Positions 37,015-43,443 are shown, numbered from the stretch's first letter. The stretch: DNA of 46,903 nucleotides from Candidatus Daviesbacteria bacterium RIFCSPHIGHO2_02_FULL_39_12 (GCA_001777055.1 MFCX01000036.1:1-46903), one strand, 5' to 3'. Program-made: numbers and translations. Notes: generated by a model from the sequence alone, not told the origin.

Positions 37015-37620
37015 TTAAAAGTTTTTCCTTTTTTGTTCCAGCCGTTTCTTAAAAAGATTTTCCCTAAAGCCGCCTTTTTGGACAAACTTTTCTTCCAGAG
37101 ACTCTTGCAGCCTCTTTTGTAAATAAATAGCTTGGTTAATCAAGGTTATCATTAGATTTACAGCTTGAGCTAAATCTTTGGGAAGGTCAGGGAAGTTGGG
37201 GGAGTCGGGAAGGGTTGGGGTAGCCTTTAAAATCCCCCATACTTTCCCAACCTCCCTTACTCTCCTAACCGTTTCTTCCTTTACCCAAATCTCCACCTTA
37301 TTTTGCCTGGCAAAGGAAAGAAAATCTTTTAAGAGTTCTTCCAAAGAGCCTTTATTAACTCCTGTAAGTTTTATGTAACCCTCCAGACTTGCTTGTTGGT
37401 TGCCTTCGGGGATATTAGTCATGCCGCTTCTTGCAGCCTGAACCATTTGATCAAAAGTTCGGTGGGAGGAAAGGTTGGGGTAGTTAAGGAAGTTGGGGGA
37501 AGAACAGCGTTTACAAAAGACTACGGTGTAGTCGTAAATTGGCACGGTAATTTTATAAGCTAACAGGTACTCATACCCAGCATGGTATTTTATTTTTGTT
37601 TCCTTACTTTGCTGATTCAT
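37015..37620 (-). CDS. Four-helix-bundle protein (23S rRNA IVS protein / Avd-like family) with C-terminal suffix domain
   Basis: FDQMVQAARSGMTNIPEGN (family hallmark Q..RAa.S...NI.EG), C-terminal KGGFRENLFKKR. Two nonamer-array inserts. Confidence 0.7.
   Translation of the reverse strand: MNQQSKETKIKYHAGYEYLLAYKITVPIYDYTVVFCKRCSSPNFLNYPNLSSHRTFDQMVQAARSGMTNIPEGNQQASLEGYIKLTGVNKGSLEELLKDFLSFARQNKVEIWVKEETVRRVREVGKVWGILKATPTLPDSPNFPDLPKDLAQAVNLMITLINQAIYLQKRLQESLEEKFVQKGGFRENLFKKRLEQKRKNF
37180..37224. repeat. Nonamer-periodic array (G-rich family) inside the four-helix-bundle gene
   Basis: gggaaggtc agggaagtt gggggagtc gggaagggt tggggtagc. Relatives at 37461-37503 and 37631-37656. Confidence 0.7.
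37461..37503. repeat. Nonamer-periodic array, same G-rich family
   Basis: ggtgggaggaaaggttggggtagttaaggaagttgggggaaga. Confidence 0.65.
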
Positions 37621-37630
37621 TGTATTTTTA

Positions 37631-37656
37631 ACCTACTTCCCCCACTACCCCTACCT
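37631..37656. repeat. Nonamer-periodic array remnant just upstream of the start codon at 37620
   Basis: acctacttcccccactacccctacc is the reverse complement of ggtaggggt agtggggga agtaggt. Confidence 0.6.
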
Positions 37657-40932: not shown

Positions 40933-41543
40933 TTATTTTTAAACTCCCTTCTTTTCTGAAAAAGATTTTCCCTAAAACCGCCTTTCTGGATAAAGCTTTT
41001 CTCAATTCCTTTTAAAAATCTGTCTAATAAAAACCCTTCCTTGGTGCAAAGGGTAATCATTAAATTAGCAAAAGCTTCTGGATCAGAAAATTTTATTCCA
41101 TGAGACTCATTAGACTCATGAGTCACATGAGGCTCATGGGGATTTATTAGTATGGAGCGCAGGTGTAAAACCCGCGGGTCGTTTTTATCCCAAAGCTTGA
41201 GTCCTTTATTAAATAGAAAGTCCTGGTAGTCTTCTATTAGTTCTCCGTAACTTGCTCTTGATACACCAGTTAGCTTCAGGTTGCTTTCTACAGAATTTTC
41301 CAAAGAACCTTCAACCAAGTCCTGTTTGCCTGAACGGGCTGCCTGTTCCATTTGGTCAAGGGTTCGGGAAAATTTAGAGATGTAAAGCTTTAAAAAAATA
41401 CTGTTAAGGTTGTAGATCTCTACTGCAAGCCAATAAACCAGAGTATTTTTAATTCCTCCTAGGCTTTTTCCATGAGACTCATTGGTCTCATGTGACTTAT
41501 TTGACTCATGTATTTTATCTTGACTCATATTATTAAAAATCAC
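40929..41543 (-). CDS. Four-helix-bundle protein (23S rRNA IVS / Avd-like) with suffix domain
   Basis: LDQMEQAARSGKQDLVEGS, C-terminal KGGFRENLFQKR. ATGA overlap with the downstream LamG gene and 11-nt overlap with the upstream one. Confidence 0.7.
   Translation of the reverse strand: MIFNNMSQDKIHESNKSHETNESHGKSLGGIKNTLVYWLAVEIYNLNSIFLKLYISKFSRTLDQMEQAARSGKQDLVEGSLENSVESNLKLTGVSRASYGELIEDYQDFLFNKGLKLWDKNDPRVLHLRSILINPHEPHVTHESNESHGIKFSDPEAFANLMITLCTKEGFLLDRFLKGIEKSFIQKGGFRENLFQKRREFKNK
41098..41141. repeat. Nonamer-periodic array (catgag family)
   Basis: ccatgagactcattagactcatgagtcacatgaggctcatgggg, translated as HEPHVTHESNESHG. Confidence 0.7.
41470..41529. repeat. Nonamer-periodic array (catgag family) at the four-helix-bundle gene 5' end
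   Basis: catgagact cattggtct catgtgact tatttgact catgtattt.., translated as HESNKSHETNESHG. Confidence 0.7.
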
Positions 41544-43443
41544 TCACGCTAATATTATCTCCTGTGCCATCCATTTTTACCCCTTTGCCATATTTACCAG
41601 TACTCCAAACGGGATTGCCGTTTAAGGTCCCTGTTCTGCCATTACCGGAGGTATCATTGGCAGAAGTACCTGAACCCTCTTCCATTTTAAGTTCCACCCT
41701 TGGCCCCGGAGCAAAGTTATATAGTTGGGGGACTTCATTTGGAGAAAGTGCACGGTTATAAACTCTAACTTCATCCAAATTTCCATTATAAAATCCGCCG
41801 CCTCCACAACTGTCAGTTTGTCCAAATCTTTGACCACAGGAAGTACCAGCTGTAAGCGTACCGGAAGCATTAGTAGAATATATTTGTACACCATTTTTAT
41901 ATAAGTACACCTTTGAACCATCCCAACGGACTATTACATGTTGCCACGAAGATGTTGTCCATGTATTTCCTGTTTGCGGATAGGTGTTGCTTGTGCTAAT
42001 GCCGTTTAGAGTAATAAGAGAAGCACTAGTATTAAACCGGAATGTAAACCACCCAAGATTAATAATGTAGCCCTCATTAACAGCATTTGGGTTCATCCAA
42101 AAACTAACTGTGAGCTGTTGGGGTACACTAAGTGGGTAACCACCACTAAATGAAACATAATCTTGGCTGCCATCAAAACTACCTCCATTACCAAATTTAC
42201 CTGCTGCTCCGCCAGTAGGTTTAGTACAACTTGCCCCAGAGCAATTAGCAGTACCTTCATTGCCGTTACCTGATGAATCTAATATATCAGCAGAAGTGCC
42301 ACTCCAGGAAGCTTCATCCATTTTCCAGTAACCCACTAGTCCTTGGGAAAGGGATTTCCACTGATCAGAGGAGCCGATTTGCGCGGATACCCCTATCAGT
42401 GAAGATCTGCCATTGTAATCCGTGAGAATCTGAGCCGCTGATCTGGCATAATTGTAAACCTTAACCTCATCTATAAAGCCTTGGCCATAATTAGTACTGA
42501 TCTGGCCTATTTTAATGGCTGAACCGGAAAGGGCGGAACCGGTGGTGACTGTAATATATTGCCATTGGTTGGCTGTAATAGTGGAGGAGACTTTGCCGTT
42601 GACATAGACAGTAGGCGAGGTAAAGCCTGTGGCAGAAATTGTCCCTGAGGAGGATTGGATATAGGCTGAGCCATTAAGATCGATAAATTGCTCTGATGTA
42701 GTTGTTGGTCTGATCCAGAAAGAAACACTTTGAATATTAGAAACAGTGTTACTTACTGTTACCACATCATTAGTTCCATCAAAATATAGACATTTACCTG
42801 ATACACACAGATCCTCTGTTTGCCAGGTAGCACCATCTAGGGTTCCATCATTATTATTACTGGTAGAATCCTGGGCATTAGTACCAGTACCATCATCAAA
42901 ACTCCAGTAAGCTGCAGGTGATGGGGCTTTTTCTTCTGAGGCAGAGGAGGTGGAGGAAGGGGTAAAGGTGGCTTCGGAAAATTGCGCACTTTCAGTTCCA
43001 TTTTGGGCTGAGGGGTTACCGTAATAATGGAAAATTCTGGTAGCGCCTGCATTGATGGTGGGTATTAAAACATAGTAATCGGTAGAATTAGTGTTGCAGT
43101 CGCCCCCGGCTGTGTCAATAAAATAGCGCAATAGGTTACCACTGCCGTCTGTAAAGCGGGAGTCCCCGCAGTCTGATTGCATCTTACCCGCGCTGATTAA
43201 GGTTGCTGTGTCTATGTCAAACTTGACCTTTTTATTGCTGTCCGCTGCCCCGGAATTGTTGACGGTATATTCGGTTCTATAAGCCCAGCTGTCATCATAC
43301 CAGGCGGCGGAGGCGGGTTTGGGGCGCATTAAAAGATATAACCCTGAGCCTGTGAAAATAGTTAAGGCTATTAAACCCATGAGGAGAGATTTTTTGGTAA
43401 TCTTAATAAAGCCCTGCTGTATGTAGTTTGACAAATTTATCAT
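41533..43443 (-). CDS. Membrane-anchored DUF2341 plus three LamG-like domains surface protein
   Basis: TM anchor LLMGLIALTIFTGSGLYLL. DUF2341 pattern AWYDDSWAYRTEYTV..DCGDSRFTDGSGNLLRYFID..YYVLIPTINAGATRIFHYYGNP. LamG ends IDEVKVYNYARSAAQI and LDEVRVYNRALSPNEV. Confidence 0.8.
   Translation of the reverse strand: MINLSNYIQQGFIKITKKSLLMGLIALTIFTGSGLYLLMRPKPASAAWYDDSWAYRTEYTVNNSGAADSNKKVKFDIDTATLISAGKMQSDCGDSRFTDGSGNLLRYFIDTAGGDCNTNSTDYYVLIPTINAGATRIFHYYGNPSAQNGTESAQFSEATFTPSSTSSASEEKAPSPAAYWSFDDGTGTNAQDSTSNNNDGTLDGATWQTEDLCVSGKCLYFDGTNDVVTVSNTVSNIQSVSFWIRPTTTSEQFIDLNGSAYIQSSSGTISATGFTSPTVYVNGKVSSTITANQWQYITVTTGSALSGSAIKIGQISTNYGQGFIDEVKVYNYARSAAQILTDYNGRSSLIGVSAQIGSSDQWKSLSQGLVGYWKMDEASWSGTSADILDSSGNGNEGTANCSGASCTKPTGGAAGKFGNGGSFDGSQDYVSFSGGYPLSVPQQLTVSFWMNPNAVNEGYIINLGWFTFRFNTSASLITLNGISTSNTYPQTGNTWTTSSWQHVIVRWDGSKVYLYKNGVQIYSTNASGTLTAGTSCGQRFGQTDSCGGGGFYNGNLDEVRVYNRALSPNEVPQLYNFAPGPRVELKMEEGSGTSANDTSGNGRTGTLNGNPVWSTGKYGKGVKMDGTGDNISVSDF

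Follow-up and report, generated by a model that had tools for sequence, protein, structure and literature searches.

Why do genes for small four-helix-bundle proteins alternate so tightly with genes for large LamG surface proteins? The question is raised by a group of genes (37015-43443) of Candidatus Daviesbacteria bacterium RIFCSPHIGHO2_02_FULL_39_12 (GCA_001777055.1, contig MFCX01000036.1). The window analysed is this entire 46.9-kb contig (46,903 nt), which comes from an 830-kb, 97.5%-complete Patescibacteria genome; all genes of the group lie on the minus strand. A reading made from the sequence alone had listed five minus-strand open reading frames (ORFs), whose order and coordinates are all confirmed here, and had suggested that the bundle proteins could be a dedicated chaperone or regulator pair or the remains of a distal diversity-generating retroelement (DGR). 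It had overlooked that both LamG genes are halves of a single split gene. The reading favoured here, with slightly better than even confidence, is that the locus is one old two-part gene for a LamG surface protein, in whose two free positions small lodger genes, including both bundle genes, have settled. The bundle genes are relatives of the ORFs found in rRNA intervening sequences.

The split LamG gene

The two large proteins are ordinary DUF2341/Laminin_G_3 surface proteins, and DUF2341-bearing giant proteins have been reported across Patescibacteria (PMC11809585). Laminin_G_3 (PF13385) is matched in them with E-values of 1e-94 (four stretches) and 3e-27 in Pfam searches and DUF2341 (PF10102) with 29.9 bits (cut-off 23.4), and signal-type N-termini were read from their sequences. 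Part A (41533..43443, 636 aa) is composed of a signal-anchor, the DUF2341 domain, two complete LamG domains and an orphan N-terminal piece of a third (41536..41682, residues about 588-636), whose final residues are GKYGKGVKMDGTGDNISVSDF. Part B (38347..40932, 861 aa) begins with a signal peptide (residues 1-26).

The window contains five complete LamG repeats, from which a repeat model of 204 positions was built. In A, the terminal ~50 residues match positions 7-56 of this model; the last domain hit, over positions 8-56, stops one residue short of the stop codon. Residues 29-167 of B match positions 62-203, i.e. the remaining two-thirds of the split domain, and are followed by three complete LamG domains according to Pfam or four according to the repeat model. 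When the A tail and the B head are joined, they form a single continuous domain (positions 8-203, 103.5 bits). When thirty intact LamG domains from the window and its relatives are aligned, they match the A tail, pass over the cassette lying between the two genes and continue at B's ...NQFTISLYF. The genes for A and B are the halves of what was a single, old gene for a surface protein, and the cut runs through a LamG domain.

The identical break was found in L143 (Blackburnbacteria), L144, L146 (Collierbacteria), L147, L149 and L151, which makes seven Microgenomates lineages with the window. In these lineages A terminates in ...GKYGKGVKxDGTGDxIxxSDF(GY) and B starts at model position 61-63, preceded by a signal peptide wherever the start of B is callable and free of an N-terminal fusion or read-in extension. 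Every B ortholog (55-78% identity) begins at the cut, the 8000 scored candidates included no close unsplit A-B ortholog, i.e. no empty site, and other LamG giants terminate in complete domains; the cut is therefore old and was not produced by the cassette now occupying the gap. The continuous multi-LamG giants encountered in relatives are related at the level of paralogs only (35-42% identity).

Both pieces of the split domain are better conserved than the domains beside them. Mean pairwise identity reaches 0.57 in the A tail and 0.60 in the B head versus 0.36 and 0.37 in the neighbouring intact domains. Codon identity at identical residues is 0.47 (tail) and 0.44 (head) versus 0.40 in the neighbouring domains, so that synonymous sites are nearly as saturated and the constraint on tail and head therefore acts at the protein level. 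We infer that the two pieces would reassemble outside the cell. A Foldseek search with a model of the split domain confirmed a LamG/ConA-like fold only. The possibility that the cassette is read through in the LamG frame was rejected, since 25 stops lie between A and B in that frame; A and B share one reading frame in the window, which has a 1-in-3 chance of occurring and is untrue in L151.

Two slots and their occupants

In the window, the gap between A and B is occupied by 4HB-2 (40929..41528, 199 aa from ATG 41528), a bundle gene of the suffix type defined below. Its ORF stays open back to GTG 41543 (span 40929-41543). ATG 41528 is the more likely start: it lies 4 nt past a TAA TAA double stop and agrees with the ortholog in L054, a locus of another Daviesbacteria genome. 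The 11-nt overlap formerly ascribed to this gene is therefore an artefact of assuming the distant GTG start. At its other end 4HB-2 overlaps B by ATGA. Part B is followed by an inserted toxin-antitoxin cassette made of a Gp49/HigB-like toxin gene (38029..38343; PF05973, E 9e-24) and an adjacent XRE/helix-turn-helix antitoxin gene (37732..38004; PF01381, E 8e-15), as in type II toxin-antitoxin systems (HigB/Gp49 with XRE). Beyond it lies an orphan, internally shortened copy of the last ~25 codons of a LamG gene (37659..37733), ending in ...NGQIDDVRVYNNGAVFFGPSSGAP and a stop. This orphan shows about 79-91% nucleotide identity to 38345-38466, with mismatches free of adenine bias, and marks the former 3' end of B. 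The second suffix-type bundle gene, 4HB-1 (37015..37620, 201 aa), begins 38 nt beyond it. Since the orphan tail stands just before 4HB-1, the ancestral order was the one seen in L144 and L151, with the bundle gene after B; insertion of the toxin-antitoxin cassette and gain of a new 3' end of B followed later. Scanning for promoters and terminators within the operon gave no signal beyond shuffle expectation, Rfam matched zero families in the window or in the gaps of relatives, and no tRNA was found in a tRNA scan of the A-B gaps.

A census of 10 loci shows that the A-B gap and the site after B behave as slots holding exchangeable, small, self-contained genes. The gap is occupied by a suffix-type bundle gene in the window and, fused in frame to B, in L146 and L149; by a plain TIGR02436 gene in L151; by a 148-aa ORF in L143 and L144, with or without a GxxExxY gene of the PD-(D/E)XK type; by a RAYT/IS200-like gene in L148; and by a 152-aa ORF with the motif ...IKVI...HFxSVIPxW in L150. 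In L147 it is empty. The site after B holds PF05635 genes of several subfamilies in the window, L143, L144, L146, L150 and L151 (6 of 9 lineages), a RAYT-like gene in L148, an NYN gene in L147 and a GIY-YIG gene in L149. The exchange is most directly seen between L146 and L148, whose flanks are 85-92% identical at the nucleotide level and yet carry four-helix-bundle genes in one and RAYT-like genes in the other at both slots. At the post-B slot of this pair, homology restarts 42 nt ahead of the stop codon of the small gene.

The L054 ortholog of 4HB-2 has 78% nucleotide identity, which is confined to the ORF. It lies inside the ATP synthase operon (L054:926-7101), in a co-oriented 3.9-kb block flanked by atpG and atpD, together with an unrelated 855-aa signal-anchored protein and the same HigB/HigA toxin-antitoxin pair as in the window.

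Some occupants deserve a description of their own. The 148-aa ORF (MK.(L/Y)IDQSGK...; L143:2450-2896, L144:6455-6901) is conserved and has no Pfam, NCBIfam or PADLOC match; in L143 it adjoins the GxxExxY (TIGR04256) gene. The two in-frame fusions of a suffix-type bundle gene with a B-type LamG gene (L146:7001-10819 and L149:841-3390) are independent, one being of the 4HB-1 type and one of the 4HB-2 type, and may be real or one-base assembly slips.

Family and fold of the bundle proteins

Both small proteins carry the C-terminal suffix domain of ~49 residues (GGFRENLF...) described by TIGR04258 (4helix_suffix, cut-off 40), with 49.8 bits for 4HB-1 and 52.5 bits for 4HB-2. These are the only two copies detected in a whole-genome scan, and the proteins are 35% identical to each other. 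Their assignment to the PF05635/TIGR02436 four-helix-bundle superfamily (23S rRNA IVS protein) relies on the family profile and on the predicted fold, because core-profile scores of single sequences are marginal: TIGR02436 (cut-off 24) gives 24.4 bits for 4HB-1 and no match for 4HB-2, and PF05635 gives 23.8 bits versus a gathering score of 33.8. Among 18 aligned family members, 15 match PF05635, and the family profile retrieves 2GSC from the PDB at E 0.003. An AlphaFold2 model of 4HB-1 (201 aa) reached a mean predicted local distance difference test score (pLDDT) of 86.5 and a predicted template modelling (TM) score of 0.80. Its best Foldseek matches are the PF05635 proteins 2GSC (TM 0.79-0.87) and 2RLD. 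By profile and model, both proteins thus belong to this superfamily and carry the suffix domain, in agreement with the sequence-only reading. Their supposed likeness to the accessory variability determinant Avd stands at the level of the superfamily, within which Avd is placed (PMC10053308), and fails at that of the bacterial Avd (bAvd) profile and structure.

More than 100 homolog clusters of 4HB-1 are known at 70-86% identity across candidate phyla, which indicates strong purifying selection on the protein. PADLOC found no defence-family match for the bundle proteins or the other lodgers.

Nine-nucleotide arrays and gene architecture

Each bundle gene is accompanied by its own tandem arrays of a 9-nt unit. 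In 4HB-2 a 5' array (41471..41530, unit ATGAGTCNN / CATGAGNCT) starts at the start codon, a mid-gene array (41099..41138) encodes HEPHVTHESNESH and forms a local hairpin, and a 3' array (40880..40918) lies immediately past the stop codon. Read in another frame, this 3' array is the hydrophobic core of the signal peptide of B. In tandem form, the 4HB-2 unit has no other occurrence in the 830-kb genome. 4HB-1 contains two in-gene arrays of the unit CCCCAACTT (37466-37500 and 37178-37221), and a G-rich 9-nt array 5' of the gene (37625..37652) is their inverse complement. The array-encoded stretches of 4HB-1 (residues 41-52 and 134-149) are predicted to be inter-helix loops in the AlphaFold2 model.

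The inverse arrays can pair. A predicted RNA stem between 37625-37652 and 37466-37500, about 28 bp long, encloses the start codon of 4HB-1 with -58.4 kcal/mol (z -3.67); none of 200 shuffles was equally stable. For the 4HB-2 cassette, the predicted RNA fold has a z of -4.47.

This organization is found throughout the family. Ninety-six suffix genes, taken together with 100 nt on either side, were compared to 153 controls of matched size from the same loci. Direct repeats at long range were present in 46/96 suffix genes versus 13/153 controls and long-range inverted repeats in 37/96 versus 7/153 (Mann-Whitney p about 1e-10 in both cases). The repeat arms cluster at -100..+30, +300..+440 and +525..+680 from the start codon. 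Private arrays at three stereotyped positions are therefore a family-wide trait. The idea of a hypervariable mid-gene array in the 4HB-1 family was rejected, as the stretch is conserved (identity 0.78 among 119 close homologs). In the same homologs hypervariability is confined to the N-terminal array region (identity 0.36, gaps 0.30).

Neighbours of the suffix-type genes

The distribution of the suffix domain was examined in 401 evenly drawn Patescibacteria genomes, with gene calls made in the surrounding DNA by a simple greedy ORF caller. The domain occurs in 29 of them (7%), in 1-3 copies each. The gene directly upstream of a suffix gene encodes at least 1000 aa in 8/32 cases versus 5/356 for other genes of the same loci (Fisher p 9e-7). 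It is LamG-positive in 6/32 versus 1/356 cases, and co-oriented with the bundle gene in 26/32. Further upstream giants carry Peptidase_S74 or FG-GAP domains, and ClpB and TopA are also among the neighbours in loci of the candidate phyla radiation (CPR). Other phyla contributed 59 loci, in which the gene upstream encodes at least 600 aa in 17/59 cases versus 80/695 (p 5e-4); all these counts are uncorrected for kinship among genomes. The neighbours in other phyla are functionally unrelated (Eco57I-type methylase, helicase, AcrB, rhamnosidase, GcvP). Placement beside LamG and other giant genes is thus non-random, as the sequence-only reading had supposed, but it is not specific to LamG. The alternation of large and bundle genes that was noticed in the window recurs in other Microgenomates (L143, L144, L146, L151). 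In L095 and L108, Peptidase_S74-bearing giants are followed by suffix-type bundle genes; L100 has only an 80-aa suffix fragment.

No retroelement at the locus

According to one proposal, the bundle genes are Avd-type accessory genes, either left from or serving a DGR that diversifies the LamG proteins. It draws on the place of Avd within the superfamily, on the abundance of DGRs in CPR bacteria and on the existence of some reverse transcriptase (RT) in 13 of the 28 other suffix-bearing Patescibacteria genomes. In those 13 genomes, the RT lies on a different contig or at least ~11 kb off, never adjacent, and the other 15 have none. RVT_1, the RT profile, has no match in the genome studied here, while control genomes were detected. 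A blastn search of 37000-43500 against the whole genome returned local paralogous repeats only, without adenine bias. The similarities within the LamG region are ordinary paralogy between domains. The bAvd profile PF22296 is unmatched by both window proteins and by all 18 family members, and the 50 listed Foldseek matches of the 4HB-1 model include no Avd entry. Neither an RT nor a pair of template and variable repeats was thus found in the genome as a whole. The DGR reading is rejected for this 97.5%-complete genome, and a role of the bundle genes as DGR accessories is considered very improbable.

Comparison with known systems

The closest known relatives by profile and fold are the PF05635 23S_rRNA_IVP proteins 2GSC (XCC0516) and 2RLD (BT_0352). 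TIGR04258 and TIGR02436, to which the window proteins belong, are family names without an assigned function. The literature searched contained no description of a gene with three such arrays or of a preferred location behind giant genes. PF05635 ORFs occur in CPR rRNA insertions, scattered among insertion sites (bioRxiv 10.1101/2024.02.27.582315). In Coxiella, the intervening sequence (IVS) with S23p has been called a selfish genetic element and is excised by RNase III (PMC4990558); such IVS or their PF05635 ORFs are scattered among lineages or insertion sites (PMC4990558; 10.1101/2024.02.27.582315). The window element resembles an rRNA IVS in that an ORF of the same superfamily is bracketed by sequences able to pair. 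It differs in its position in a protein-coding operon, with ends predicted to pair and no rRNA (23S or 16S) in the window, and in possessing a C-terminal suffix domain and a mid-gene array.

With bAvd (PF22296; PDB 4DWL), the window proteins share the helical-bundle superfamily, and the five chains (A-E) of 2GSC and 2RLD recall the Avd pentamer. The window differs in the absence of an RT, of template and variable repeats and of a bAvd profile match. Its neighbours, in addition, are LamG-fold proteins, whereas the usual DGR target fold is the C-type lectin.

REP/RAYT and IS200/IS605 elements also have short hairpin-forming repeats around a small gene, and RAYT-like Y1 transposase genes occupy the same two slots in the sister genome L148 and were seen in no other locus. 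In contrast to these elements, the bundle protein is neither HUH nor Y1 and its 9-nt tandem arrays are private to the gene and undispersed; no Y1 transposase was found among the ten ORFs scanned within 36169-46902. As for the surface protein, the docking proposed below for the A tail into the incomplete domain of B is reminiscent of donor-strand complementation in pili. It would differ from it in that a whole LamG jelly roll is split about one-third/two-thirds across two separately exported products.

Proposed mechanism and rival explanations

In the favoured reading of a two-part gene with lodgers, each bundle gene is a compact and possibly selfish cassette. One of its own 9-nt arrays lies at the 5' edge and one in the middle of the gene; the third directly follows the stop codon in 4HB-2 and falls within the first 50 codons in 4HB-1. 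The tight gene overlaps would arise because the cassette was wedged into a co-transcribed gene pair, and it is from the 3' array of the cassette that B's start codon and the hydrophobic core of its signal peptide are read. The bundle protein, whose relatives include proteins that are pentameric in crystals and the RNA/RT-binding Avd, could bind the hairpins into which its arrays fold as RNA or single-stranded DNA, and these hairpins could process or move the cassette, acting as 23S rRNA intervening-sequence stems do for RNase III. This step is put forward tentatively. A more speculative and rather unlikely extension has two linked parts. First, the split LamG jelly roll would be an extracellular docking device, the ~50-residue A tail fitting into the first, strand-deficient domain of a 4xLamG protein that is secreted separately and can be exchanged. 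Second, the gap so created and the 3' end would offer safe sites to a hitherto undescribed class of single-gene cassettes with hairpin boundaries. The members of this class would be PF05635 four-helix-bundle genes, each encoding a protein that binds the gene's private 9-nt arrays, and the RAYT/IS200-like Y1 transposases found in the same slots of the sister genome would perhaps mobilise them in trans.

The chief competing explanation is a real partnership, in which the suffix proteins would be dedicated cytoplasmic partners of giant exported proteins, i.e. chaperones, export pilots or regulators that are co-translated with them. The enrichment directly downstream of genes for at least 1000 aa, the predominance of co-orientation, the recurrence of the pattern in L007 as well as in the four Microgenomates loci named above, the strong conservation of the protein and the two fusions keep it alive. 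It has difficulty accounting for the sister genome, where RAYT-like genes replace both bundle genes between nearly identical flanks, and for the GxxExxY, NYN or GIY-YIG genes, toxin-antitoxin pairs or empty gaps found in the same slots. The bundle subfamily in a given slot also varies by lineage, the domain is present in a small fraction of Patescibacteria genomes though DUF2341 giants are found phylum-wide (PMC11809585), and the neighbours outside CPR are unrelated. The chaperone or regulator pair of the sequence-only reading is accordingly weakened, and we consider a partnership unlikely. Less likely still is that the cassette is retained as an RNA element of the host operon, its array hairpins acting as processing or stabilising sites at which the very long transcript is cut into pieces for separate translation, and the bundle protein tuning this. 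The stable predicted hairpins, including the stem around the 4HB-1 start codon, the position behind long co-directional genes in several phyla and the provision of upstream stop codons and a downstream start codon by the cassette would fit such a role, and RNase III cleavage of intervening-sequence stems provides a precedent (PMC4990558). On the other hand, B of L147 has its own promoter-like element with no bundle gene in the gap, the slots accept entirely different genes and the distribution of the element is patchy.

Several observations weigh against a locus of independent lodgers. The enrichment behind long genes is unexplained by random insertion into intergenic DNA, and the PF05635-type genes in most of the post-B slots could reflect a real functional tie. 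The two independent in-frame fusions point in the same direction, and the purifying selection on 4HB-1 suits a host-useful function equally well as an active selfish element. No transposase, integrase or empty site for the cassette was found in the genome and no movement was observed; as the array units are absent elsewhere in the genome, there is no sign of recent spread. Regarding the split domain, AlphaFold2 folded the read-through single chain, with the cassette as a junk linker, at a pLDDT of 86-96 in the tail and 80-96 in the head, a result that shows compatibility only and is circular for docking because the underlying alignment consists of intact domains.

Upstream zone and other repeats

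Upstream of A lies a zone (43524..44360, minus strand) with partial copies of the 5' end of A and a 107-aa ORF (43524-43847). Three partial copies of the signal-anchor 5' end (80-86% identity) are stacked before the intact start (43276-44255), and look like scars of repeated 5'-end replacement. The 107-aa ORF and the 152-aa ORF of L150 (L150:3-461) have in common, by eye, the motif ...IKVI...HFxSVIPxW and have no database match. This ORF family thus sits among duplicated A 5' ends in the window and in the A-B gap in L150. In L147 (830-1010) and L151 (3230-3400), B is preceded by a conserved element of ~110 nt with promoter-like hexamers and a hairpin; after the element comes a stretch that, on the opposite strand, resembles the T-arm and acceptor of a tRNA, i.e. 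its 3' half. The window has a partial copy of the element upstream of the A fragments (about 43977-44100, minus strand). ARAGORN and Rfam made no call at the element or at the tRNA-like stretch. Directly upstream of the LamG locus, 44311-46902 (minus strand) encodes a large protein cut by the contig end, with a Peptidase_S74 chaperone domain in the middle of the chain and an SH3 domain at the C-terminus.

Tandem Repeats Finder detected many short arrays of 7-nt period in 5062-10415 and 44590-45710, for instance CTATACG x5 at 5062 and at 7493, with several more from 7687 to 8939. Arrays of the 9-nt unit TATAATAAT were reported as well, at 20990 and 27139, which, like the 7-nt arrays, are unrelated to the bundle genes.

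Implications

PF05635/TIGR02436 is a very large family without known function, encountered in rRNA intervening sequences, in DGRs and in many phyla. The locus constitutes a natural experiment for this family, with two paralogs in one genome that each have their own array units, a host gene pair with lineage-specific fillings and a sister genome in which Y1 genes are swapped in. It speaks against regarding many of the 'Avd-like' genes next to genes for surface proteins as DGR remnants. For the organisms themselves, the conserved LamG cut suggests that ultrasmall episymbionts could build modular surface fibres from exported, exchangeable parts.

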